Below are positions 595-50,945 of a DNA stretch of 64,000 bases, piece after piece. The DNA is taken from positions 49,427-113,426 of the forward strand of contig JABGXP010000010.1 in the NCBI GenBank assembly GCA_018675685.1. The letters are read 5' to 3'. Under the pieces are notes generated by a model. It ran no database searches. It saw only the letters and a list, made by a program, of their open reading frames with translations, and was not told the DNA's origin. Each line of letters begins with the position of its first letter. Positions within the stretch are counted from its first letter, which is position 1. The position numbers and the translations under genes are program-made. Source of the stretch: a bacterium (GTDB lineage Bacteria > Patescibacteriota > Minisyncoccia > Moranbacterales > DUUL01).

Positions 595-948
595 TTATTT
601 ATCTGATAATGTTGCGGTGAAGTAGTTTACGATACTGATGATGAAAACTCCCCAAAGCGCAGACCAGAAACTGTTAATTGTAAAGAAATCAAAAGCACCA
701 GCAACGAAATATAGTAAGCAGATATTAATGATTACAACAAAAGTTCCTAAGGAAAGGAAAATCAGAGGTAAAGACAATAACTTTATCACTGGCTTGATTA
801 AGGAATTTACAAGACCTAATAGAGCGCCAGCTTTTACAAGGTTTAAAAAAGTCACTTCAAAGGTGATGCCTGAGATAAACCAAGCTGCAATATAGATAGC
901 AATCGCATTGCTAATAATGTGAAAACAAACCTTCTTTAAAAAAGACAT
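595..948 (-). CDS. Small 4-TM membrane protein, holin-like (YvlD/DUF360, phage_holin_4_2-like)
   Basis: 117 aa with four hydrophobic helices in the pattern of YvlD-family proteins. Assigned by sequence pattern only. Confidence 0.4.
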   Translation of the reverse strand: MSFLKKVCFHIISNAIAIYIAAWFISGITFEVTFLNLVKAGALLGLVNSLIKPVIKLLSLPLIFLSLGTFVVIINICLLYFVAGAFDFFTINSFWSALWGVFIISIVNYFTATLSDK

Positions 949-4943: not shown

Positions 4944-5870
4944 ATGAATTGGATTATGTTGGCAATCAGTGCCTATCTATTGCTTTCTATTGAATCAATT
5001 GCAAATAAGTTTTTGATTTCAGGAAAAGTTGGAAGTTGGCGCCTATATTTATTCTATATTGGGCTTCTTTCGTCCACCAGTTTAATGTTTGCTCCCTTTG
5101 GTTTGTACTGGCCAGGTTGGCATGTTGTGGGAATTTCCGTTGCAACAGGAGTTGTCTTTTTTGGATACCTAGCCTTTCTATTCTCTTCTCTGAAGAGTTC
5201 AACAGCCACTAGAGTTTTTGTTTTGATCGGTGCCGTTGCAACAATCACAACCTTTATTTTCTCAAAATTGTTCTTAAATGATAACCTGACTAGTAGCAGT
5301 TTATTCGGAGTGATAATGTTACTGTTGGGAGGTTTTTTTATAGCCTTTAAAGTTAAGGAAAAGAAGTTTTTTACAGATTACAAAAAAGTCCTTATTGCAG
5401 GTGTTTTATCTGGAGTTTCCCTGGGTATGTTGAAATATACTTTTGATATTTTCCAAGGACTTGGTGGAACAGATTTCGAAGTTTTTGTGAACGGGTATAT
5501 TTACACAAGAATGGGCTCCGTTTTAATGGTGATTGTTCTTATGTGTTTACCTTCGTATCGTAATCATATTTTGGCAACGTTTAAAAAGAAGAAAGGAAGG
5601 GAACATGCTTCAAATTTCCTAATTGTTGTAGGAGTGAAAACATTATCAGGGATTGCCACATTTATGATGAATTTCAGTCTTTCTATTGGCGACCCAACAA
5701 TTGTAAGTGCCCTAGCATCAGTTCAGTATCTCGGAGTTTTTATACTATCAATGTTTCTATCAAAAAGGTTTACTGCTATTTTCAAAGAGAATTTCGAGAG
5801 AAAAGACATGCTTTTTAAGGCCACAGGAGTGCTATTTGTTGTTTTGGGTATCATAGCTGTCTTTGTTTAG
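4944..5870 (+). CDS. Polytopic membrane protein (DMT/EamA-like?)
   Basis: 308 aa with about 9-10 hydrophobic helices. The family assignment is weak. Confidence 0.35.
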   Translation: MNWIMLAISAYLLLSIESIANKFLISGKVGSWRLYLFYIGLLSSTSLMFAPFGLYWPGWHVVGISVATGVVFFGYLAFLFSSLKSSTATRVFVLIGAVATITTFIFSKLFLNDNLTSSSLFGVIMLLLGGFFIAFKVKEKKFFTDYKKVLIAGVLSGVSLGMLKYTFDIFQGLGGTDFEVFVNGYIYTRMGSVLMVIVLMCLPSYRNHILATFKKKKGREHASNFLIVVGVKTLSGIATFMMNFSLSIGDPTIVSALASVQYLGVFILSMFLSKRFTAIFKENFERKDMLFKATGVLFVVLGIIAVFV

Positions 5871-5909
5871 TAACTTAAAAGTTTCTGTAATAAAAATTAA
5901 AATCTAAAA

Positions 5910-6971
5910 ATGCGAATTGTTAAACTCCTTGCAAAGTTGTTGGTGAAAATAATCATTTTTTTGGCTATCTTGATTGCCATTATTTTGGTTGCCTTTAATT
6001 GGCCAGTGCAGAGCAAAAATGAGAATATGGAATTCGGAGTTTCTTTTTCTGATGTGCAAGCTCGAGCGCTTGACATGGATTGGAAAAGTACTTATATCGA
6101 AATTCTAACAGACTTGAAGCCTAAGAAGATGAGAATTGCTGCATATTGGTCAGATATTGAAAAAGAACCAGGAGTCTATGATTTTTCAAACCTAGACTTT
6201 CAGGTTGAGCAGGCTGAAAAATATGGAACCAAATTAGTTCTAGCAATGGGAGTTAAAGTTCCTCGTTGGCCAGAGTGTTTTATCCCAGAAATGTATGCAG
6301 AGGGTGAAAATGACAAACCGCTCTCAAAAAAAGTTCTAAGAGAGGATGCAGTTTTGAAATTTGAAAAAGCACTGGTCGAGAGATATAAGGATAGGGAGAT
6401 TATCGAGATGTGGCAGGTTGAAAACGAACCCTTTTTGTCATTCGGTCATTGTATAGAAGGAGCATTAGACAAGCAAATTGTGGAACGAGAAATCGCACAA
6501 GTACACAAACTGGACAGTACTCGGAAAATCATGACGACTGATAGTGGGGAACTTAGTCTCTGGAGAGATGCCGCAAGTCGCGCTGACATCTTTGGAACGA
6601 CAATGTATCGAATTATCTACAAAGGAGCAAAATGGTATGACGGTTATGTCCATTATCCAATTGGCCCAAATTTTTTCAGAATCAAAGCAAAATTAATTGG
6701 AAAATGGATCAACTCTGAGGACATTGTGATTTCGGAGCTGCAAGGTGAGCCTTGGGGACCAGGTTGGATCAAGACTATGCCGATTGAAGAACAATACAAA
6801 TCAATGAGTCCTCAAAAGTTGGTTGATATTGCTGAATTTGCTCGCAGGACTAAATTTAAGGAGACATATGTTTGGGGAGTTGAATGGTGGTATATGCTTA
6901 AATACCAACGGGAGAACTCGGATATGATAGAAGCCGCAAAGCAAGTGATCACAAAAAGAGAAGAAAAATAA
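5910..6971 (+). CDS. Glycoside hydrolase, TIM-barrel clan GH-A (GH5-like), membrane anchored
   Basis: N-terminal TM helix, then a hydrolase domain with the characteristic WQVENEP catalytic-acid motif. Confidence 0.5.
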   Translation: MRIVKLLAKLLVKIIIFLAILIAIILVAFNWPVQSKNENMEFGVSFSDVQARALDMDWKSTYIEILTDLKPKKMRIAAYWSDIEKEPGVYDFSNLDFQVEQAEKYGTKLVLAMGVKVPRWPECFIPEMYAEGENDKPLSKKVLREDAVLKFEKALVERYKDREIIEMWQVENEPFLSFGHCIEGALDKQIVEREIAQVHKLDSTRKIMTTDSGELSLWRDAASRADIFGTTMYRIIYKGAKWYDGYVHYPIGPNFFRIKAKLIGKWINSEDIVISELQGEPWGPGWIKTMPIEEQYKSMSPQKLVDIAEFARRTKFKETYVWGVEWWYMLKYQRENSDMIEAAKQVITKREEK

Positions 6972-8359: not shown

Positions 8360-9490
8360 TTAGGTTTTTTCATTCATCAATTTGCTAAAGTTGATAGTCA
8401 CGTCATTGATCCATCTTCCAGCATTTGGGTCTTTGCTACAAGCTGAGCCACATTTCCATAAGACCATCTCTTGAGGGGTGTCTACATCAATTTTCACAAG
8501 TCTCTCAAGTCTGCCACCGACAGTGTCAATTGCATCTTGTGGACCATCAAAACAAGTATGTCCCCCTGTTCCCATTTTCTTTCTTATCCCGCGATATCCC
8601 CAATAGTTATAACAATTCTTCCCATTAAGAACTGGTACATGTCTTCCAAAACCACTTTCTTTCATTGCAATTCCAACAAGAAAAGCTGCTACAGTCCGAT
8701 CTTTCTTAGCGATTAGTGGAGCCATTTCTTCCATAGGGTTTCCTTTTAGAATCTCATAAATTTCACCTTCCAGCTCTTCTGTTTTTATGGTGTCAAAACG
8801 CTTCAGTGCATCTAGCACGAAAGCATCCAGTTTTTGATCAAATTGTTGTGCGATTTTTTCATCTTTCGCTCCAAGCACTTTAGTCTGAGCTTGTACAGTC
8901 GTTTCTGCTTGTTTAAGATGCAAATCAGCCAATTCTTCTGTAGTAGTGTTGTTTTTTTGGTAGCCAACAGTGAATGTAGCAACACTAGTAACAAGAATTG
9001 TTAGTACTAATGCAGTTGCAAAAGATTTTGTTCTGAGAAAAGACATTTGCCAATCAAAGCCCCAAAAAGAGACAGGAGTTTCTCTTGGGTCAAGCTCGCA
9101 CTCCAAGGGACTTTTGAAGGAGGTGTTCAAGAATGGAAGATCGCGGACATATTTCTTCGAATAGTTCAGTTGAAATTCTGGCGAGCAATCCATTTTTTCA
9201 AAATGCTTGGTAGGAGAAATTTCATCAATAAAGTTAACCTTTCTCACCTCAAGTGCTGTCCAACAACCTTTTTTGATTGCGATTCTTTTTGTTTGACTAA
9301 CATAGTTTTTGTTTACTCCATCAACAAAAAAATCTCTCTTGAATTTTGACAAGAAGATTGTTTCTCCCAGGACCCCACTTTTTAGTTGTTTGATCTTTTC
9401 TTGAGCTCTTTTTGGATCATCAAACAGAAACCTAAAGTCCGGTTTGTTATATTTGTCCGTTATGCAATATAAGGACTTTTTTACTTTCAT
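8360..9490 (-). CDS. Membrane-anchored protein with C-terminal GH73-like (glucosaminidase/lysozyme-like) 4-Cys domain, paralog 1
   Basis: C-terminal block PMEEMAPLIAKKDRTVAAFLVGIAMKESGFG...NCYNYWGYRG...GGHTCF...WKCGSAC...RWINDV is shared with ORFs 9627..10388 and 30461..31081. The ESGFG and NYWGYRG blocks resemble glucosaminidase AQAALESGWG and NNLFGIK. There is a TM helix mid-protein. Confidence 0.5.
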   Translation of the reverse strand: MKVKKSLYCITDKYNKPDFRFLFDDPKRAQEKIKQLKSGVLGETIFLSKFKRDFFVDGVNKNYVSQTKRIAIKKGCWTALEVRKVNFIDEISPTKHFEKMDCSPEFQLNYSKKYVRDLPFLNTSFKSPLECELDPRETPVSFWGFDWQMSFLRTKSFATALVLTILVTSVATFTVGYQKNNTTTEELADLHLKQAETTVQAQTKVLGAKDEKIAQQFDQKLDAFVLDALKRFDTIKTEELEGEIYEILKGNPMEEMAPLIAKKDRTVAAFLVGIAMKESGFGRHVPVLNGKNCYNYWGYRGIRKKMGTGGHTCFDGPQDAIDTVGGRLERLVKIDVDTPQEMVLWKCGSACSKDPNAGRWINDVTINFSKLMNEKT

Positions 9491-9626
9491 TTTTTATTTT
9501 CTTTTAGCGTTTTCAAGCTAAAAAACGACATTTAAAACACTAGACAAGACATGCTCTGAATAACTTGTCTTTATTGTAGATGATTAAGGATAAGTGTCAA
9601 TATTGTCAAGAATTGATTTTGATGTT

Positions 9627-10388
9627 CTAGATGTCAATTTTCATGACCTTAGCATGAAAAAGCGCAACATCAGAGATCCATTTTTGAACACTTTGCGGTG
9701 AATGGGTGGCGCAAGATGAACCACACTTCCAAACTGTCATCTGAGAAGGTCTTGTGGCACCGACTCTAGTCGTTAGTTGTTCTAGTCTTCTTCCAACTAT
9801 AGTGATTGCTTCCTTTGGATTCGAAAAACAGCTATAACCACTTCTGGTTGGACTGGTTTTCCCTTTGAAGCCCCAGTAGTTATAACAACGCTCCCCATTT
9901 TTTTTAGGAGAATAGACTCCAAATTTACTCTCTTTGAAGGCAATTCCAACAAGAAAAGCCGCTACAATCTTTTTTTGCTCAAGAATTGGCTCAATCATTT
10001 CTTCCATGGGAGTTCCCCCTAGAATTTCAAACAATTGTTCTTTCGATATCTTTTGTTTTTGTTCCAACAAAAGCTCTTCTTTGGACTTGAAGGTGTCCTC
10101 ATCACAAAAATCAGGGAAAATTTCAAGTTCCAGTTTCCGAGTATTTTTTTTCAAGAAGCTAGGGTTGCAAAGCGAGACGGTTTTTTTCTCAACATTTGAT
10201 TTTGCATAAGCAAATGGGAAAGCCCGACGGTTTTCGGGGGAGTCAAATGAAGAAAAAGACCAATAAAAAAAGCCACAAATGAGCAATGTGGACCCGATGA
10301 CTAGTTTTTTCTTTCTATTTTTCTGACTTGAAATAGCTCCCCTTATAAAGCTAACCGATTTAGCAGTTAAATCTGCACATCGTTTCAT
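9627..10388 (-). CDS. Membrane-anchored GH73-like 4-Cys domain protein, paralog 2
   Basis: N-terminal TM helix. C-terminal block TPMEEMIEPILEQKKIVAAFLVGIAFKESKFG...RCYNYWGFKG...SGYSCF...WKCGSSC...KWISDV. Confidence 0.5.
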   Translation of the reverse strand: MKRCADLTAKSVSFIRGAISSQKNRKKKLVIGSTLLICGFFYWSFSSFDSPENRRAFPFAYAKSNVEKKTVSLCNPSFLKKNTRKLELEIFPDFCDEDTFKSKEELLLEQKQKISKEQLFEILGGTPMEEMIEPILEQKKIVAAFLVGIAFKESKFGVYSPKKNGERCYNYWGFKGKTSPTRSGYSCFSNPKEAITIVGRRLEQLTTRVGATRPSQMTVWKCGSSCATHSPQSVQKWISDVALFHAKVMKIDI

Positions 10389-10571
10389 GTATTACAATCA
10401 ATGATTATCACCTTGAAAAAAGGATCTTACAAGGCAGCCTTTCAGTTGTTTACTAAGCTTTTTATGGGTAATTTATTTCTAAGAAACATTTTCTATTCTA
10501 CAAGTTTCAGAACACTTGTCAAGTGGGTAAAAATATGATAAAGTCGTTCTTGTAGTCGACAACACATTTTT

Positions 10572-10643
10572 GGCCCGTTCGTCTAGTGGTTAGGACGCCA
10601 GGTTTTCATCCTGGTAACAGGGGTTCGATTCCCCTACGGGCTA
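10572..10643 (+). tRNA. tRNA-Glu (anticodon UUC)
   Basis: Cloverleaf folded by hand. Acceptor stem GGCCCGT/ACGGGCT with a G1-U72 wobble. D-arm GTCT-AGTGGTTA-GGAC. Anticodon stem CCAGG/CCTGG with loop TTTTCAT (anticodon TTC). T-arm AGGGG-TTCGATT-CCCCT. Discriminator A. No encoded CCA. Confidence 0.85.
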
Positions 10644-10655
10644 CACAGAAAAAAA

Positions 10656-11428: not shown

Positions 11429-11695
11429 ATGGAATTAAAACCTTATTTTTACAAACAAAGAGTCAAGGACACTCATTCCGACTATGGAAAAGTAGCCATT
11501 AGTTTAGAGAAATGTCCTAACGGTACAGTAGAGTTGATGGGATGTGCTTGCACCTTTCATAGTTGTTGTAAAGATCACAAACCCCATATGCGCATAGTGG
11601 AAACCCCATACTGCTGGATACAATGCGAAGCTACAACAAAAATGATGGAAAGAGATCCTACTTTGGGACAAGTGGAAACATGTCGCGTAAAATAA
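11429..11695 (+). CDS. Small cysteine-rich protein (88 aa, 8 Cys)
   Basis: An SD (AAGGGAGA) precedes the ATG. Cys pattern CPNGT..GCAC..HSCC..CWIQC. Followed by an intrinsic terminator. Confidence 0.5.
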   Translation: MELKPYFYKQRVKDTHSDYGKVAISLEKCPNGTVELMGCACTFHSCCKDHKPHMRIVETPYCWIQCEATTKMMERDPTLGQVETCRVK

Positions 11696-18890: not shown

Positions 18891-19949
18891 ATGATGGAAT
18901 TTAAAAAGAAAAAAGTAAAATCACAAACTCTAGGTGAAAAACTAAAGCAAGTCAGGGAAAAAGCCAATGTTTCCTTGAGCGAAATAGCTAAGAATACAAA
19001 AATTAGAAAGCTTTACCTAGAGATGCTGGAATCAGGGCGTTTTGATAAATTGCCCCCAGATGTTTATGTTAAAGGTTTTCTCAATGGGTACGCTGAATAT
19101 CTAGGGATTGAACCAGCTGATGTGATGAAATTATACGAGAAAGAAAGAGGGATTCAAAGAAGTATGAAGAAAACGCGGAACGAAGATCAGTCCATTGTTA
19201 AGAAAAATAGAAAATTTGAATTGCCCGCTATTGTTTTTACCCCCAAAATTTTTACCGGAATATTCTTCGCGAGTTTGGTATTGTTGGGAGGAATTTATTT
19301 CTATAGGGAAGTTGGTGAATTTTCAAAAGCTCCACGCTTAGTTATTCTTCAGCCAACAAGCGATATCTCAATTGATGTCAGTTCCATCGAGGTTATTGGT
19401 ATCACTGACAAGGAAGGAAAAATCAGAATTAACGGACAACCAGTTTTTGTTAATGATAAAGGAGAATTCAAGGAAACTCTTAGTTTGCAAAGTGGAGTTA
19501 ATGAGATTGAAGTAAAGGCTATTAATCGTTTTTCCAACGAAGAAGCAAAACGTTTCAATGTATCAGCTAATTATGAAACTGATATTGCAAAAGAAGAAGT
19601 GGGAAGTGTAATGGGAGCTCAAGACAAACAAGAAGAGGAAACAGTTAGGTTGGAAATAAAAATCAAAGATTTTCCTACTTGGGTATTGGTTACTGTTGAT
19701 GGCAAAAATATCCAAAATGGCACAATGTTGCCAGGAGCAATCCAAATCTTTGAAGGGCAAGAAAAAATTTCTGTAACAGCCGGTAGAGCAGACCAGGTTT
19801 TCGTTAAGTTAGGAGAAAAAGATCTGGGGTCATTGAGCGAAGACCCAGTAGTTATCAGAGATATTGTCTTTACACCAGAGAGTGAGGGTATTTTATTGCA
19901 AGAAGACGAAAAAAATGAAAAACAAGAGAGCGAAGTGGACAATATTTAG
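18891..19949 (+). CDS. rodZ: RodZ-like cytoskeleton protein (HTH_25 + TM + DUF4115-like)
   Basis: N-terminal XRE-type HTH (LGEKLKQVREKANVSLSEIAKNTKIRKLYLEMLESG), a TM helix at ~125-145, and a beta-rich C-terminal domain. Confidence 0.6.
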   Translation: MMEFKKKKVKSQTLGEKLKQVREKANVSLSEIAKNTKIRKLYLEMLESGRFDKLPPDVYVKGFLNGYAEYLGIEPADVMKLYEKERGIQRSMKKTRNEDQSIVKKNRKFELPAIVFTPKIFTGIFFASLVLLGGIYFYREVGEFSKAPRLVILQPTSDISIDVSSIEVIGITDKEGKIRINGQPVFVNDKGEFKETLSLQSGVNEIEVKAINRFSNEEAKRFNVSANYETDIAKEEVGSVMGAQDKQEEETVRLEIKIKDFPTWVLVTVDGKNIQNGTMLPGAIQIFEGQEKISVTAGRADQVFVKLGEKDLGSLSEDPVVIRDIVFTPESEGILLQEDEKNEKQESEVDNI

Positions 19950-29418: not shown

Positions 29419-30420
29419 CTACCTCTTTTTACAAATTGGATCTATTGAACTTTTCCCATTTCCTTCAAAAACATTATCACTTGAAATTTCTACCATTTTT
29501 GTGAAATAAGGAGATTTAATTGGAGCATGAAGAGCACATCTAATTCCAAAGTCAACGTTTTTAGCTATGAGATTATTTGAAATTTGCACAATTGAATTGC
29601 CTTCAAACGTTTGAAGATTGATTCCACTTGCTCCATTTTGAAGAAATATAGAATTCTCAATCACTAAATCTATATTTCCGATTTCTGTTTCTAAACCACC
29701 TTCTCCGTTTCCAATCACCTCTATATTGCTAATATATGTTTTCATTCCTGCATGCAGATCAACACCTTCTTCCCCGTTCTCTTTTAAGTAGGAATCTTTA
29801 ATAGTAACAGTGCTTTTCTGAAGATAGACACCCTGTCTTCGATTCTTGGTAATATGAGTTTTAACTATATCTAGTGTTGGTTTTGATGTGGAGTGTATTT
29901 CATTGAATATCCCCCATTTTGTTGCTTTTGAAATTTTGCAATTTGAAATTAAAATCCCGGTTTTATCTTGGGGTATGTAAACATTATACTTTCCATTTTC
30001 AACTGAAATATTCAGCAACTTGGTATGATTGTTTGCAAAAATAACCTTTCCTTTGTCGAGCAAGTCCAATGGTTGGATTATGGTCAGTATATTATTTTTA
30101 TAGTCAGTTTCTCCAGATAGAATAATATTTTCTGGTAATATTAAGTTTTCCTCGTAGATTCCTTTCTTAATTTTTATAATTTTCAAAGAAGTTTCTTTTT
30201 CTATGGACTCCAGAGCTGAGGAGATCTTTTTAAAAGGGTATTCAACAGAACCATTTTCAAGATTATTTTTCGATGATTGGTTAACAAAAACAATTCCCTT
30301 TTGGGGAATCAGCAGTTCATTTATGACATAGTCACTTATTCTTAGGTGAATTTGCTTATTAACAAGAAAAATAAAGCCAAAAAGAATTAGATATATAAAA
30401 AGATTCTTGAGTAGAGGCAT
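29419..30420 (-). CDS. Secreted right-handed parallel beta-helix (PbH1 / pectate-lyase-fold) protein
   Basis: Signal/TM N-terminus. Repeated G..G.I/V..N..I.N...GI stretches, e.g. NGEEGVDLHAGMKTYISNIEVIGNGEGGLETEIGNIDLVIENSIFLQNGASGINLQ. Confidence 0.55.
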   Translation of the reverse strand: MPLLKNLFIYLILFGFIFLVNKQIHLRISDYVINELLIPQKGIVFVNQSSKNNLENGSVEYPFKKISSALESIEKETSLKIIKIKKGIYEENLILPENIILSGETDYKNNILTIIQPLDLLDKGKVIFANNHTKLLNISVENGKYNVYIPQDKTGILISNCKISKATKWGIFNEIHSTSKPTLDIVKTHITKNRRQGVYLQKSTVTIKDSYLKENGEEGVDLHAGMKTYISNIEVIGNGEGGLETEIGNIDLVIENSIFLQNGASGINLQTFEGNSIVQISNNLIAKNVDFGIRCALHAPIKSPYFTKMVEISSDNVFEGNGKSSIDPICKKR

Positions 30421-30460: not shown

Positions 30461-31081
30461 CTATTTTGATAGTTTTTGAAAGTATAAATCGACATCACTA
30501 ATCCATTTTCTTACACTATAAGAGCTGTGGGTTCTACAAGAGGAACCACACTTCCAAACAATCATCTCCTTGGGAGTGTCTATTCCTTGTTTTACTAAAT
30601 AAGTTATTCGTTTAGCTACAATAGCTACAGCTTCTTCCCGTGAAGCAAAACAAGAATGCCCTCCGCTTCCAAGTGTGTTTGGTCCGCGATATCCCCAGTA
30701 ATTGAAACATTCCTTACCTTTGTATTTAGGAGTTCTTTTACCCCAATTACTTTCCTTCTTTGCGATACTCACGAGAAAAATTGAAACAATTTGATCATGC
30801 TCCATAATATAAGGAATCATTTCTTCAATCGGGTGCCCAGCAACCATTTCTCTTATTCTTTGTTCAAGCTCTATTTTTTCAATATTCTCAATATGAGAAC
30901 TCTTGCTTAAAGAAATATCTTCCTTGAGGTATATAAAATTATACCAAAGGCAAATAAATGTAAATAATAAAAGTACTAAAAAATATATCAAAAAATGACG
31001 AGATTTCTTCAGTGGAATAAAATCTTTTTTTAGTTTGTACAGAGATTTCTTTTTTGTTGCTTTTTCTTTTTTCATTTTCAA
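30461..31081 (-). CDS. Membrane-anchored GH73-like 4-Cys domain protein, paralog 3
   Basis: N-terminal TM helix. C-terminal block HPIEEMIPYIMEHDQIVSIFLVSIAKKESNWG...ECFNYWGYRG...GGHSCF...WKCGSSC...KWISDV. It lies directly upstream of, and on the same strand as, the beta-helix gene. Confidence 0.5.
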   Translation of the reverse strand: MKMKKEKATKKKSLYKLKKDFIPLKKSRHFLIYFLVLLLFTFICLWYNFIYLKEDISLSKSSHIENIEKIELEQRIREMVAGHPIEEMIPYIMEHDQIVSIFLVSIAKKESNWGKRTPKYKGKECFNYWGYRGPNTLGSGGHSCFASREEAVAIVAKRITYLVKQGIDTPKEMIVWKCGSSCRTHSSYSVRKWISDVDLYFQKLSK

Positions 31082-45569: not shown

Positions 45570-46556
45570 TTGATGAAAATGAAAAGACTGGTATGGATTA
45601 TTGTATTTATTTTGATTGGATGGCTGATTTGGAATGGATCAGTGGCTTTATTTAATGAAAAACGTAAAATTTCTTTTTTTGGAGAAAAACTAATTACTGT
45701 GAATGATGATGGTTTGGTTTACCAAATTTTGTCTGATGCTAAAAATATCGCTGAATTTGAAAAAAAACATAAACTTAGATCGAGCGAAAACGATTTAATT
45801 TACCCAAATAAAAGCGAGAGACTCTTGCCAGGTATGATTGTGGAAGTTTGGCGCAATAGAAAAGTGAAAATTGAGGTTGACGGAAAAGAGATTGAAAAAA
45901 ACACTTTTGCTAAAACTGTCGAGGAAGCTCTTGCTGATGCAGACATCTTTGTGGGACGTTTGGATGTAGTAGAGCCATCTAAGTTGGAAACAATAGATAA
46001 CAGTAAGGAGATCGTTGTGACTAGAATTAATGTTGAAAACATAACCATTGCAAAAAAAGTTGACTTTGAAACAATTGAAAAGAATGACAAAAAACTGCAA
46101 TGGATGAAAAATAAAATTGAACAAGCGGGCGAAAAAGGTGAGAGAGTTGTTGAATATCAAGTAACCTATAAAAACGGTAAGGAGGTTTCAAGGAAAACTC
46201 TTTCCTCTGAAATTACAAAAAAACCAGTAACTGAAATTGTTAGAATTGGAACAAAGATCAACTTTGGAAAATCTCACACTGGATGGGGAACATGGTATGA
46301 CCAGGGACCCCATCCGAAACTTAGAGCAAGATATCCATTTAAAGGAGATATGTTTGCTGCAAGCCCTTGGTTGCCGCTTGGGAGTTATGCTAAGATCACG
46401 AACAAAGCCAATGGAAAGGCTATTATTGTTAGGATAAATGACCGTGGACCCTTTGGAGAAAATAGAATCATTGATCTACATAAACCTGCATTTACGGCAA
46501 TAGCCTCCCTGGGAGCAGGAGTACTAGAAGTAAAAGTGGAAGAAATTTTGCAATAA
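45570..46556 (+). CDS. RlpA-like lytic transglycosylase family protein (TM + G5-like + DPBB domain)
   Basis: C-terminal GWGTWYDQGP...AIIVRINDRGPFGENRIIDLHKPAF is the RlpA double-psi beta-barrel signature. A middle G5-like beta domain. Confidence 0.7.
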   Translation: MMKMKRLVWIIVFILIGWLIWNGSVALFNEKRKISFFGEKLITVNDDGLVYQILSDAKNIAEFEKKHKLRSSENDLIYPNKSERLLPGMIVEVWRNRKVKIEVDGKEIEKNTFAKTVEEALADADIFVGRLDVVEPSKLETIDNSKEIVVTRINVENITIAKKVDFETIEKNDKKLQWMKNKIEQAGEKGERVVEYQVTYKNGKEVSRKTLSSEITKKPVTEIVRIGTKINFGKSHTGWGTWYDQGPHPKLRARYPFKGDMFAASPWLPLGSYAKITNKANGKAIIVRINDRGPFGENRIIDLHKPAFTAIASLGAGVLEVKVEEILQ

Positions 46557-47633: not shown

Positions 47634-50600
47634 ATGAGCGAAGAAGAAAAACAAAAACAAAATGAAGAAAACTCTGATGATGCTCAAAAGGCTAGTCAGA
47701 CAAATGTGAATGACGACGAAGAAAGAGTTGTGTACGAAGAAGATGAATCGCCGGAAGAAAAAGAGCGCCGTCATCTTGAGGCACGAGACAAGAGGCGAGC
47801 AGAAAGAAAAGCCTTAGAAGAAAAGGAGAAAAGGGATGTAAAGGAAAGAAAGAAGAAGAAAAAGGAAGAAATGAACTTTGCTAGAAAAGGGAAGGTTCAA
47901 AAAACCCTAACACACTTGAAAAAGGGTTCCGAGGAAGAAGAGGCTTCAAAACTGGCAAACACACTTCATATCCCGTATCTTGATCTTAATATTTTTCCGA
48001 TTGACCAGGAAAATGTTAAATTTATAGAAGAGGATATTGCGAAAGAGTTAGGAATAGCAGTTGTTCATAAACTAGAAAGATCAATAAAGTTAGTCACGAC
48101 AAACCCTGAAGAGGGAAAAGTCAGGGATTTCATCGCAGAACTAGAAGATGATGGGATGAAAGTCGAACTTTTTATAGTTTCGCAATCATCCATAGAGAGA
48201 GCCTGGGACGAGTATGGAAAGGAAAACTTAGTAGAAATCCTAGATACATTACGAGCGGGGTTAACAGGTGAAGAGTTAGCAGCTTTCGAAAATGATACGA
48301 AAGGTGTTTTGGATATGGATACAAAAATTCGTGACCTTCCAGTAACAAAAGTCTTGAACATGGTTCTGGCTGGAGCTATTAAGTTAGAATCATCGGATAT
48401 TCATTTCGAGCCACAACAAACAAGTAAGGTCCGTTTGAGATTTCGTATAGACGGTGTATTGCAAACAGTAGCATCTTTCCCTGTTCATATATATCCAACG
48501 GTTGTTGCTAGAGTGAAGGTGCTTGGAAAAATGATGATTAATGTGCGAGATATTGCACAAGACGGTCGTTTTTCTGTTGAAAGAGAGGGTCAAGCCCCAA
48601 TGGATTTGCGTGTTTCGATTCTACCAGGTAATTTTGGTGAAAATATTGTGGTTCGTTTGCTTAGTCAAAACATCGATGACTTGTCTTTAGATAAAATGGG
48701 ATTAGAAGGGCTGAATTACGAATGGCTTATTAATGAATCTGAAAAAAAACAGGGTGCTATTATTAATTCTGGACCAACAGGAAGCGGAAAAACAACAACA
48801 TTATATGCGCTTATTAATCGTTTAAATTCCGTTGACAAGAAAATCATTAGTATCGAAAACCCGATTGAATATCAAGTCCCTGGTGTTAGTCAAACCCAAA
48901 TTGAAGAAAGAAAGGGATACACATTTGAAAGTGGCCTGCGGGCAATTATGCGTCAGGACCCAGACATTATCTTGGTCGGTGAGATTCGGGATGAAGCTAC
49001 TGCAGAGATAGCCATTCATGCCTCATTGACTGGTCATCTTGTGCTTTCAACAACTCATGCAAATAGTGCGACGGGGGTGATTGGACGTTTCGTTGATCTT
49101 GGAATTAAACCAAACTTAATAGCCCCTGCAATCAATGCTTTTGTTGCACAACGTCTTCTGAGACGTCTATGCCCACATTGCAAAGAGGAATACAAACCAG
49201 CAAGTGAGACAATTGATATGATTAAGAAAATGTTGGCGCTTATTTCTCCTAAGGCTGATATTTCCATACCTAAGCATATTGAAAAACTTTGGAGACCAAA
49301 GGGTTGTCATAAATGTCATGGACTTGGGTATAAAGGAAGAGTGGGAATTTTTGAGATCCTTGTTATTTCAGAAGAAATCAAAGATGAAATCGAGAGAATG
49401 TCGCCAGAGGATGAAATTAGGAGTGTGGCATTGGAAAATGGAATGATTACTTTGGAGCAGGACGGAATTTTAAAATCTGTTATTGGTACTACCTCAATCG
49501 AGGAATTGCAAAGAGTCGTTGGAAAGGGTGAATACTTGATTGATTTATATGAAAAAATAGTTGTACAATCTTTGGCACGTGGAATTTTTGTTAAAGATGA
49601 AGTTTTGCAGGCTGTTGATAAAATCAGGGATGATTATGAGGCATTCGAAGAACTGTATCGGAAACTTCCGCCAAAGGAATTAATCAAATACATTCTAATT
49701 GGAGCAATATACACAGGAACTGGAGACATTCATATTGAACCAGGGATGAAGCAATTTAAGATTCGATATCGAATTGACGGTGCTTTGCATGATATCGCAC
49801 TTTTGGCAATGAATGATTATTTGACTGTCTTAAATGAGATTAAGAATTTAATGGGAGTTAAAACCGGAAAGCGAGAAGGAGTGATTGATGGGAGATTTAA
49901 AATTATGTATACCAATAAAGACAAGGAGTCAGGAGAGGAGAGTATTGACGTTCGTGTTTCTATTATACTTGGTGGCTTTGGCGATGTAATCGTGATGAGA
50001 CTTTTAAGTCAAAGCGTCCAAGTTGCTAGCTTGGAAAAGTTAAATATAAATGAGTATAATCTTGAGAAAATAAAGAGAAATGTTGCCCGTCCCAATGGGA
50101 TTATTATGGATACAGGACCGACTGGGAGTGGAAAAACTACTACATTGTACAGTCTTTTGAATTATCTTAAGGACCCTAAATTAAAATTAATCACAATTGA
50201 AGATCCAATTGAATATCAAATGGAAGGAGTTTTGCAAACTCAAGTAAAAGAGGAAGAAGATTATACCTTCACGACAGCGATGAGGGTTATTTTACGACAA
50301 GACCCTGATATTGTAATGGTTGGAGAAATAAGAGACTCAGAGAGCGCCAATGCTGCCTATAGAGTAGCTTTAACAGGGCATTTAATCCTAACCACACTAC
50401 ATGCAAACAGTGCAGCAGGAGCTGTGCAAAGACTTTTGAATATGGGTATATCGATGTCGGATCTATCAACTGGTACGAATTGTTTTATTGCACAACGTTT
50501 AGTCAGAGTACTTTGTCCTCATTGCAAAAAAGAAAAAACAGTTGATTCGGAAGAAAAAAAGATAATTGAAAAAGTTTTAAAGGGTGTTTCTCCGAAAGTG

Positions 50601-50945
50601 ACCCTAGATATTCCTGAAAAAGTTGAAAAAATTTGGGAAGCAGTTGGTTGTGAAGAATGCCATAACATTGGTTTCAAGGGAAGAGTTGCAATTACGGAGG
50701 TCTTGGAGATTGATAGAGTAATGCAAAAATTTCTAACCATGAATCCAATCACAGTTGAAATTAGAGAGAAGGCGATTGAAGAGGGAATGTTGACGATGGG
50801 ACAAGAAGGAATCTTGCGTGTTGTAAGAGGGGAAACAACAATCGAAGAGATTTCCCATGTAATTAAAGAGATAGATTTTGTCAAAGTTGAAAAACAAATT
50901 GAGTTAAAGGAAGAAGAATCCGCAACCGAAGAGGTTGTGGTGTGA
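47634..50945 (+). CDS. Tandem-fused double PilB/GspE-family secretion ATPase (two complete ATPase modules in one 1103-aa polypeptide)
   Basis: Module 1: GspE N-terminal domain, Walker A SGPTGSGKTTTLYAL, Asp box DPDIILVGEIRD, His box LTGHLVLSTTHANSA, tetra-Cys CPHCKEE...CHKCHGLGYKGR. Module 2: TGPTGSGKTTTLYSL, DPDIVMVGEIRD, LTGHLILTTLHANSA, CPHCKKE...CEECHNIGFKGR. A ~90-aa charged low-complexity N-terminus. Confidence 0.85.
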   Translation: MSEEEKQKQNEENSDDAQKASQTNVNDDEERVVYEEDESPEEKERRHLEARDKRRAERKALEEKEKRDVKERKKKKKEEMNFARKGKVQKTLTHLKKGSEEEEASKLANTLHIPYLDLNIFPIDQENVKFIEEDIAKELGIAVVHKLERSIKLVTTNPEEGKVRDFIAELEDDGMKVELFIVSQSSIERAWDEYGKENLVEILDTLRAGLTGEELAAFENDTKGVLDMDTKIRDLPVTKVLNMVLAGAIKLESSDIHFEPQQTSKVRLRFRIDGVLQTVASFPVHIYPTVVARVKVLGKMMINVRDIAQDGRFSVEREGQAPMDLRVSILPGNFGENIVVRLLSQNIDDLSLDKMGLEGLNYEWLINESEKKQGAIINSGPTGSGKTTTLYALINRLNSVDKKIISIENPIEYQVPGVSQTQIEERKGYTFESGLRAIMRQDPDIILVGEIRDEATAEIAIHASLTGHLVLSTTHANSATGVIGRFVDLGIKPNLIAPAINAFVAQRLLRRLCPHCKEEYKPASETIDMIKKMLALISPKADISIPKHIEKLWRPKGCHKCHGLGYKGRVGIFEILVISEEIKDEIERMSPEDEIRSVALENGMITLEQDGILKSVIGTTSIEELQRVVGKGEYLIDLYEKIVVQSLARGIFVKDEVLQAVDKIRDDYEAFEELYRKLPPKELIKYILIGAIYTGTGDIHIEPGMKQFKIRYRIDGALHDIALLAMNDYLTVLNEIKNLMGVKTGKREGVIDGRFKIMYTNKDKESGEESIDVRVSIILGGFGDVIVMRLLSQSVQVASLEKLNINEYNLEKIKRNVARPNGIIMDTGPTGSGKTTTLYSLLNYLKDPKLKLITIEDPIEYQMEGVLQTQVKEEEDYTFTTAMRVILRQDPDIVMVGEIRDSESANAAYRVALTGHLILTTLHANSAAGAVQRLLNMGISMSDLSTGTNCFIAQRLVRVLCPHCKKEKTVDSEEKKIIEKVLKGVSPKVTLDIPEKVEKIWEAVGCEECHNIGFKGRVAITEVLEIDRVMQKFLTMNPITVEIREKAIEEGMLTMGQEGILRVVRGETTIEEISHVIKEIDFVKVEKQIELKEEESATEEVVV

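Follow-up and report, generated by a model that had tools for sequence, protein, structure and literature searches.

The closest described systems are the GH73 domains of peptidoglycan glycosidases such as FlgJ, in which a Glu has a catalytic role (PMC4752226; PDB entry 3k3t is the E185A mutant). A second catalytic carboxylate, placed on a mobile beta-hairpin, is found in FlgJ/Auto/TM0633-type enzymes only and is not universal in GH73. Neither LytB nor AtlWM has an essential second carboxylate, and for LytB substrate-assisted catalysis has been inferred (PMC4633669). No relevant paper linking CPR/Patescibacteria to GH73 or glucosaminidases was found in the literature.

Three open reading frames noted in the first-pass annotation as a paralogous family are present in the window, which is the whole 64-kb stretch of Moranbacteria (Patescibacteria) DNA that was analysed, and all three lie on the minus strand. 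They are referred to here as copies A, B and C, and their features are as follows.

8360..9490, minus strand: copy A, long class, 376 aa (open reading frame list, architecture and nearest relatives)
8363..8788, minus strand: GH73-like domain of copy A, aa 235-376 (alignment; pLDDT >90 in the full-length model)
8657-8659, minus strand: codon of E278, putative general acid of copy A; Cys at 293, 313, 347 and 351
8747..8941, minus strand: predicted extracytoplasmic helical stalk of copy A, aa 184-248 (AF2 helices 184-202 and 211-248)
8966..9022, minus strand: predicted transmembrane segment of copy A, aa 157-175 (Kyte-Doolittle maximum 2.07; AF2 helix 157-176)
9573..9600, minus strand: promoter-like site upstream of copy A (11/12 consensus match only)
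9627..10388, minus strand: copy B, mid class, 253 aa (open reading frame list, topology and class assignment)
9630..10061, minus strand: GH73-like domain of copy B, aa 110-253 (alignment)
9930-9932, minus strand: codon of E153, putative general acid of copy B; Cys at 168, 187, 222 and 226
10248..10304, minus strand: predicted transmembrane segment of copy B, aa 29-47 (Kyte-Doolittle maximum 1.51; 6 K/R in the preceding 15 aa)
10495..10522, minus strand: promoter-like site between a divergent tRNA-Glu gene and copy B, upstream of the latter (11/12 consensus match only)
30461..31081, minus strand: copy C, short class, 206 aa (open reading frame list, topology and class assignment)
30464..30883, minus strand: GH73-like domain of copy C, aa 67-206 (the sequence used for modelling)
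30752-30754, minus strand: codon of E110, putative general acid of copy C; Cys at 125, 144, 178 and 182
30932..30988, minus strand: predicted transmembrane segment of copy C, aa 32-50 (Kyte-Doolittle maximum 2.25; 5 K/R in the preceding 15 aa)

Copy A consists, in order, of a cytoplasmic N-terminus of ~156 aa, a transmembrane helix, a helical stalk and the GH73-like domain. Copies B and C each begin with a short basic N-terminus and a transmembrane helix, which are followed by a linker of ~79 aa in B and ~33 aa in C and then by the GH73-like domain. The start codon of copy C is TTG, with an in-frame ATG two codons downstream. The N-termini of A, B and C do not align with one another, in agreement with their earlier description as unrelated. 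Each N-terminal region does, however, hold one hydrophobic segment directly after a K/R-rich stretch, which indicates a membrane anchor with the GH73-like domain outside, as the first-pass annotation had supposed. All three are predicted to be type II (N-in/C-out) proteins with a single transmembrane anchor and an extracytoplasmic C-terminal domain. In the full-length AF2 model of copy A the first stalk helix (184-202) is of low confidence, while pLDDT climbs along the second (211-248); the cytoplasmic N-terminus has a pLDDT mostly <50, and thus no function can be assigned to it from the model.

The C-terminal domains match one another in pairwise tblastn at E = 1e-35 to 1e-41, with 45-49% identity over ~130-145 aa. 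The common block described earlier is therefore real and far above chance, and its consensus string agrees with the alignment of the three copies, yet it extends over ~130-145 aa rather than the ~110 aa originally given. The window holds no fourth copy: beyond these three, the best tblastn match has E > 0.1.

A plain HMMER/Pfam search, as had been suggested for placing this domain, is unsuccessful here: none of the three proteins gave a match for the domain in Pfam or NCBIfam, and PF01832 was absent even at E<=10. Among their relatives PF01832 is the only recurrent Pfam family, found in 8/77 and 54/141 members, all below threshold (best E 4.4e-5). When the 77- and 141-sequence alignments were used as profile HMMs against PDB sequences, no meaningful match emerged; influenza HA2 (E 0.3) and KinD (E 1.1) were discarded as chance matches. 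In PHROGs, copy C weakly matches the ‘endolysin’ phrog_25820 (E 0.004). Rz-like spanin matches of copy A in the same database (E~0.1) cover the transmembrane segment and stalk only and are not meaningful. Searching representatives exhaustively with the family profile in HMMER yielded only 332, and canonical GH73 was therefore not reached; the best 150 of the 332 are all family members (E<=5e-59), with no bridging sequence to GH73 among the matches listed.

Profile-profile comparison gave a clearer result. Against a single FlgJ sequence, hhalign returned a probability of 17.6% and then 68.5%, which is suggestive only, and for this reason a GH73 profile of 71 sequences was built, comprising 3 FlgJ and 68 viral GH73 sequences from viral contigs. 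In local mode the family aligned to this profile over 100 columns with a probability of 95.3% (E 2.2e-8), and in global mode over 119 columns with 93.2%; a reversed-alignment control gave 0.1%. The alignment pairs KES.[WF]G with ALESGWG and NYWGYRG with NLFGIK, the same pairings that had been proposed by eye. The resemblance to FlgJ/LytD-type GH73 enzymes thus extends to profile-profile homology, with support that comes from remote-homology methods only.

The predicted structure points the same way. The model of the copy C domain (pLDDT 94.7, pTM 0.90) has a lysozyme-like alpha+beta fold that is closest to solved GH73 structures: the top five Foldseek matches in the PDB are all GH73, at scores that are weak (E 0.01-0.15, TM 0.5-0.6), and the top matches in BFVD are GH73 as well. 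Together, predicted fold and remote homology indicate that the domain belongs to the GH73-type lysozyme fold, as a compact and strongly diverged member. No non-hydrolase family was found in any of these searches.

Conservation across the family was read from a motif-independent, HMM-derived alignment of 141 diverse representatives (A3). The candidate general acid, E44 of the domain (E278, E153 and E110 of A, B and C), is conserved in 141/141 and sits close to the C-terminus of helix three (31-45) in the model. In the alignment it falls on the catalytic-motif Glu, AQAALE[ST]GWG (Salmonella FlgJ E184; Sphingomonas FlgJ E185, the residue replaced in 3k3t). Equally invariant are the ES.xG context of this residue and, in the substrate-groove motif NYWG, N61, W63 and G64. 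Two other GH73 features are altered. An ~18-residue hairpin segment including the conserved T-x-E is deleted in the family according to hhalign; since LytB and AtlWM dispense with the second carboxylate, this loss is compatible with GH73 membership. The Y-A-T-D-P-x-Y motif, whose Tyr lines the active site and which reaches at least 85% conservation in the 71-sequence GH73 profile, has WKCG[S/Y]SC as its counterpart, with Ser in the three window copies; over the 141 members the Tyr position is occupied by Tyr in 45/141 and by Ser in 62/141.

The four Cys that had been reported as invariant are present in all three copies, and in the 141 representatives three of them are conserved in 141/141 and one in 140/141. 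A Cys4 metal site and two disulfides are equally compatible with this pattern. The window showed neither a Dsb nor a VKOR gene. In either form the four Cys may lend rigidity to the active-site loop and to a beta-lobe that is shortened.

The family comprises 332 clusters at 50% identity and >1,500 at 90%; species-representative genomes contain 530 of its loci, and its members are annotated almost entirely as ‘hypothetical protein’. As far as sampled, it is confined to Moranbacteria/Patescibacteria. No member was found on IMG/VR viral contigs, and an origin or carriage as a phage lysin is therefore unsupported. Three architecture classes (long, mid and short) can be distinguished by cytoplasmic tail and stalk length, the linker or stalk being ~33 residues in the short class versus ~75 in the long and mid classes, of which the length in copy A is typical; the long class also carries a conserved cytoplasmic tail of ~130 aa. 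These classes behave as clades. The nearest neighbour in another genome is of the same class in 110/121 comparisons, and a tandem partner is the nearest relative in 0/39. Copy A has its closest relatives in the long class of other genomes (L040, L036, L023), and copy C has syntenic orthologues in L002, L003 and L005 with 79-84% identity that adjoin rlmH and a ClpB-like gene. Sequence comparison thus indicates that the three paralogue classes are ancient and lineage-wide. The family had earlier been described as expanded, and the window does hold three copies; however, because they come from three old classes, there has been no recent local expansion.

The window also encodes MurA-family, MreB, RodZ-like and LCP proteins, a gene content that indicates a cell with a peptidoglycan wall. 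Taking this together with the preceding results, we consider it probable that the three proteins are anchored, divergent GH73-type peptidoglycan glycosidases which use the conserved Glu as general acid and remodel the wall of their own cell. The domain would cleave the glycan strands of peptidoglycan with this single Glu, and the substrate's N-acetyl group would serve as nucleophile, in a substrate-assisted mechanism like that inferred for LytB, with which the one-Glu, short-beta-lobe design is shared. Remodelling could serve growth, septum splitting or the opening of space for machines that span the envelope. The three classes may act at different places or depths, and the long class may be controlled via its cytoplasmic tail. 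Own-wall remodelling is the most likely role as judged from membrane tether and conservation pattern only. Such a family does not amount to a new class of enzyme, nor does it call for new biology.

The same fold and Glu could support a different chemistry, that of a GH23-like lytic transglycosylase or muramidase cutting the MurNAc-GlcNAc bond rather than that of an N-acetylglucosaminidase, and we regard this as unlikely, though worth keeping in mind. SLT/GH23 was rejected as the best match: the structural scores of the lytic transglycosylases Cj0843c (7lam), Slt70 (1qsa) and MltF (5aa1) are below those of the best GH73 matches, Pfam scans of the 141 members gave no recurrent SLT signal, and the motifs align to GH73.

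A more elaborate version of own-wall remodelling, to which we give little credence, is a lineage-specific Moranbacteria autolysin system, in which a Cys4-locked domain on class-specific stalks would cut the wall at defined depths and the long class would be controlled via its cytoplasmic tail. In addition, the Cys4 cluster could then work as a switch, redox- or metal-based. If this were true, long-class proteins would be activated or positioned from inside via the ~130-aa tail, as in a divisome- or elongasome-coupled control of glycosidases, and such transmembrane control would be without a described counterpart.

Many Patescibacteria are obligate epibionts, and the first-pass annotation had raised as an alternative that the proteins act on the peptidoglycan of a host. 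They would then be weapons or docking tools that thin or breach the wall of a host bacterium at the contact site. Three wall-hydrolase paralogues are notable in a small genome, and the ~75-residue stalks of the long and mid classes could in principle carry the domain past the cell's own wall. However, every copy has an uncleaved-looking N-terminal anchor and not a secretion signal or toxin-delivery domain; the neighbours are housekeeping genes (rlmH, clpB-like and transporters), and neither an immunity gene nor a secretion system lies beside the copies; all three classes are old, and their conservation is vertical; and the material examined gives no known host association for Moranbacteria. 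Because the copies are membrane-tethered and the family is ancient and housekeeping-like, the own wall is favoured as the target, which makes host attack very improbable. That the domain is an inactive peptidoglycan- or glycan-binding pseudo-enzyme, sensor or scaffold can practically be set aside: the hairpin carboxylate and the YATD Tyr, both important in many GH73 enzymes, are lost and the conserved long-class tail could signal, but the invariance of the Glu, its ES.xG context, N61, W63 and G64 in 141/141 is typical of an active enzyme, and in LytB the same minimal set goes with activity.

Remodelling of the own wall by GH73-type glycosidases would give a probable function to a ‘hypothetical’ family in a poorly understood, uncultured lineage. 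Moranbacteria would have at least three dedicated membrane-tethered putative glycan-strand hydrolases beside MurA, MreB, RodZ and LCP, with a bearing on the growth and division of ultra-small CPR cells. GH73-type sequence space would be widened to a minimal version that has a single Glu, lacks the hairpin and carries a Cys motif where YATD would be, which could inform the unsettled GH73 mechanism.

Among known systems, the C-terminal GH73 domain of FlgJ (Salmonella 5dn4/5dn5, Sphingomonas 2zyc/3vwo/3k3t; PMC4752226) provided the top Foldseek matches in the PDB. FlgJ and the family have the same motifs in the same order, A.ALESGWG corresponding to IAKKES.WG (general acid), N.FGIK to NYWGYRG, F..Y..S.eEa to CF.S.eEAV and GYATDP to CG[SY]SC. 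Unlike the family, FlgJ retains the ~20-residue mobile beta-hairpin with its second catalytic Glu, E223, and it is built as a fusion with a flagellar rod cap, its export running through the flagellar type III system; no flagellar genes were seen in the window. The glucosaminidase domain of Ecd09610, a C. difficile prophage endolysin (PDB 8yxk; PMC9405191), has 11% identity to the family domain, and this enzyme is phage-derived, fused to an NlpC/P60 endopeptidase and without a membrane anchor, whereas the family is absent from viral contigs. The GH73 domain of LytB from Streptococcus pneumoniae (PDB 7pj3; PMC4633669) has 18% identity to the family domain in structural alignment. LytB is a secreted enzyme that choline-binding repeats direct to its target, where the present proteins have a transmembrane anchor, and its domain is recognised by PF01832 and lacks the Cys4 cluster; nevertheless LytB, with one essential Glu and a short beta-lobe, offers a precedent for the design seen here.

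Three open reading frames in the window, which has a G+C content of 36.6%, encode proteins with a common C-terminal domain. Their coordinates and lengths are as the first-pass annotation described them:

8360-9490, minus strand: copy A, a 376 aa ORF
9627-10388, minus strand: copy B, a 253 aa ORF, directly upstream of copy A in the direction of transcription
30461-31081, minus strand: copy C, a 206 aa ORF with a TTG start

In pairwise tblastn comparisons the C-terminal ~130-145 residues of the three are 45-49% identical (E 1e-35 to 1e-41), and the same comparison gave no alignment between their N-terminal parts, so that both the shared block and the unrelated N-termini of that annotation were recovered. 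Searching the 64-kb window by tblastn for a fourth copy gave no other match better than E~0.2, and the window therefore holds exactly three. A single strongly hydrophobic segment of 19 residues occurs in each protein (A 157-175, B 29-47, C 32-50), preceded by a K/R-rich stretch. By the positive-inside rule the proteins are predicted to be anchored as type II (N-in/C-out), which places the conserved domain outside the cell. Modelled at full length, copy A is predicted with confidence only from the transmembrane helix (157-176) onward, through stalk helices (184-248) and into the domain.

The domain has no Pfam or NCBIfam match even at E<=10, so the Pfam comparison proposed with the first-pass annotation did not by itself place it. 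Nor did profile HMMs of 77 and of 141 family members find a genuine match among PDB sequences. When 1.84 billion cluster representatives were searched exhaustively with HMMER, only 332 proteins came back at E<=1e-3, 239 of them at E<=1e-30, and the family was joined to no larger group; at the HMMER level it is sharply bounded. Annotation calls nearly all members hypothetical; one, P0071, carries the NCBI name 'glucosaminidase domain-containing protein'.

Three more sensitive lines agree on GH73, the family that had been named from sequence motifs. When members were scanned one by one, PF01832 (Glucosaminidase, GH73) was the sole recurrent Pfam family, with matches in 8 of the 77 close relatives and 54 of the 141 diverse ones, all below threshold (best E 4.4e-5); the runner-up had 4 matches. 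A GH73 profile was built from the FlgJ proteins of E. coli, Salmonella and Sphingomonas and 68 non-identical GH73 domains from viral contigs. Against it, the domain-only family profile aligned in hhalign with 95.3% probability locally (E 2.2e-8, 100 columns) and 93.2% globally (119 columns), compared with 0.1% for the reversed family alignment. AlphaFold2 modelled the copy C domain with very high confidence (pLDDT 94.7, pTM 0.90), and the top five Foldseek matches of this model in the PDB are all GH73. GH73 proteins also head the list of viral structures. The domain of Ecd09610, a C. difficile prophage endolysin, belongs to PF01832/GH73 and is lytic by itself (PMC9405191).

The hhalign alignment pairs IAKKES.WG of the family with AQAALE[ST]GWG of GH73, C.NYWGYRG with ..N.FGIK, CF.S.eEAV with F..Y.S.eEs, and WKCG[S/Y]SC..H with aGYATDP.Y. 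In the first of these motifs the Glu aligns with the GH73 general acid (E184 in Salmonella FlgJ, E185 in Sphingomonas FlgJ; PMC4752226), the position substituted in the E185A mutant of PDB 3k3t. It is conserved in all 141 diverse members, lies at residue 44 in the third helix (31-45) of the copy C domain model, and corresponds to E278 (A), E153 (B) and E110 (C), the putative general acids. In the same alignment the family lacks the ~18-residue beta-hairpin that bears the second carboxylate (E223 in FlgJ), and the YATD Tyr position is Ser in all three copies (family-wide Tyr 45/141, Ser 62/141). Neither loss disqualifies GH73 kinship: GH73 enzymes without an essential second carboxylate have been described. 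In LytB of Streptococcus pneumoniae a single Glu is essential and a short segment stands where the hairpin would be; the authors of that work infer that catalysis is substrate-assisted, via the GlcNAc acetamido group. The four invariant Cys noted at first reading hold across diverse members (140-141/141; domain positions 59, 78, 112 and 116). Two flank the shortened beta-lobe and two lie in the loop replacing YATD. The four may pair as disulfides or make up a Cys4 metal site.

All three copies have their closest relatives in Moraniibacteriota (Moranbacteria) and other Patescibacteria MAGs, and no member was found in IMG/VR viral contigs. A pattern scan over one genome per species gave 530 loci, of which the best 80 are all from Moraniibacteriota or other Patescibacteria. 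These include MAGs from binchicken co-assemblies titled 'uncultured Bdellovibrionales bacterium' (L012, L014, L017, L018, L021 and ~30 more), yet they carry the family at 57-62% identity with EamA/GH42-like synteny as in Moraniibacteriota, and the titles probably misstate the taxonomy. Copies A, B and C represent one member each of three architecture classes:

long (A): ~350 aa, ~128-aa cytoplasmic tail with weak common motifs, ~75-aa linker
mid (B): ~250-280 aa, short tail, 60-80-aa linker
short (C): ~200 aa, short tail, ~33-aa linker

Outside its own genome a protein has its nearest relative within its own class in 110 of 121 cases, and among 39 tandem loci the tandem neighbour is never the closest relative. 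The classes are thus phylogenetically coherent and the paralogues old; the expansion proposed earlier is not a recent one.

Long and mid copies are in tandem in 44 of the best 80 loci, usually followed by EamA and GH42/GH35-like genes, as in the window (4944-6971, plus strand: an EamA-family transporter and a weakly GH42/GH35-like TIM-barrel protein). This pair lies beside the tandem in ~41 of the 80, about 1-3 kb downstream in loci L007-L079; it could reflect a functional link to envelope-glycan processing or mere within-order synteny. Most genomes have the order long then mid, whereas the window (8360-10388, minus strand) has mid then long. In L023, L036, L040, L061 and L063, which hold the closest relatives of copy A, the locus retrieved contains just the one copy. 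A and B each have their own strong promoter-like site, by consensus match only. Divergent from copy B and upstream of it is the only tRNA or Rfam match in the window:

10572-10644, plus strand: tRNA-Glu (UUC)

An 88-aa ORF with 9 Cys (11429-11695, plus strand; …CPNGTVELMGCACTFHSCCKDH…) has no tblastn counterpart among the 80 related loci and may not be a real gene. Around copy C (rlmH, beta-helix protein, ClpB-like, MFS, LCP) synteny extends to the closest relatives of this copy. Directly downstream of copy C, and kept there in L004, L005, L006 and L008, is a 333-aa right-handed beta-helix protein (29419-30420, minus strand; Beta_helix/NosD, weak pectinesterase match, hydrophobic N-terminus), possibly a partner that acts on wall polysaccharides.

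Also encoded in the window are a MurA-family enzyme, MreB, a RodZ-like protein, an LCP ligase, PrsW and a YabE/RpfB-like DPBB hydrolase, a set indicating that the organism makes and remodels a peptidoglycan wall. The last, of DUF348-G5-DPBB_1 architecture (45570-46556, plus strand), is a second kind of wall hydrolase. The RodZ-like protein (18891-19949, plus strand; HTH_25 + RodZ_C) has a Glucodextran_B-like domain inserted in its extracytoplasmic part (E 6e-14). Beside uvrB lies a 117-aa membrane protein matching Phage_holin_4_2 (595-948, minus strand; E 5e-22), with no other phage genes noted nearby. In a 1103-aa protein (47634-50945, plus strand), an unusual double-ATPase fusion, a complete secretion ATPase of PilB/GspE type (residues ~60-630, exceeding the TIGR02538/TIGR02533 cut-offs) is joined to a second stretch of T2SSE-type ATPase (~790-945), whose best partial matches are TraJ/DotB/VirB11/PilT-like.

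The best-supported prediction is that the three proteins are membrane-tethered, outward-facing peptidoglycan glycosidases of GH73 lineage. The invariant Glu would act as general acid, and the LytB-like architecture points to substrate-assisted catalysis. Lytic-transglycosylase or muramidase chemistry is a plausible alternative, since GH23 enzymes, the next-best structural matches, likewise use one Glu. For such glycosidases the target would most plausibly be the producer's own wall, because the anchor sits in its own membrane; this tether and the genomic context disfavour a host-directed role. The differing stalk lengths and the long-class cytoplasmic tail suggest division of labour among the classes. 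A non-catalytic binding role is unlikely given the invariant catalytic motif.

The initial observation is thus confirmed and its GH73 interpretation supported. Within the literature library searched, no paper links CPR bacteria with GH73 or glucosaminidases. There are precedents for the fold, the catalytic Glu and the single-Glu, short-lobe design. New with respect to these are a lineage-restricted subfamily lying under curated HMM thresholds, a predicted obligatory membrane anchor, a conserved paralogue set of three classes, and a Cys4 motif where YATD stands in GH73.
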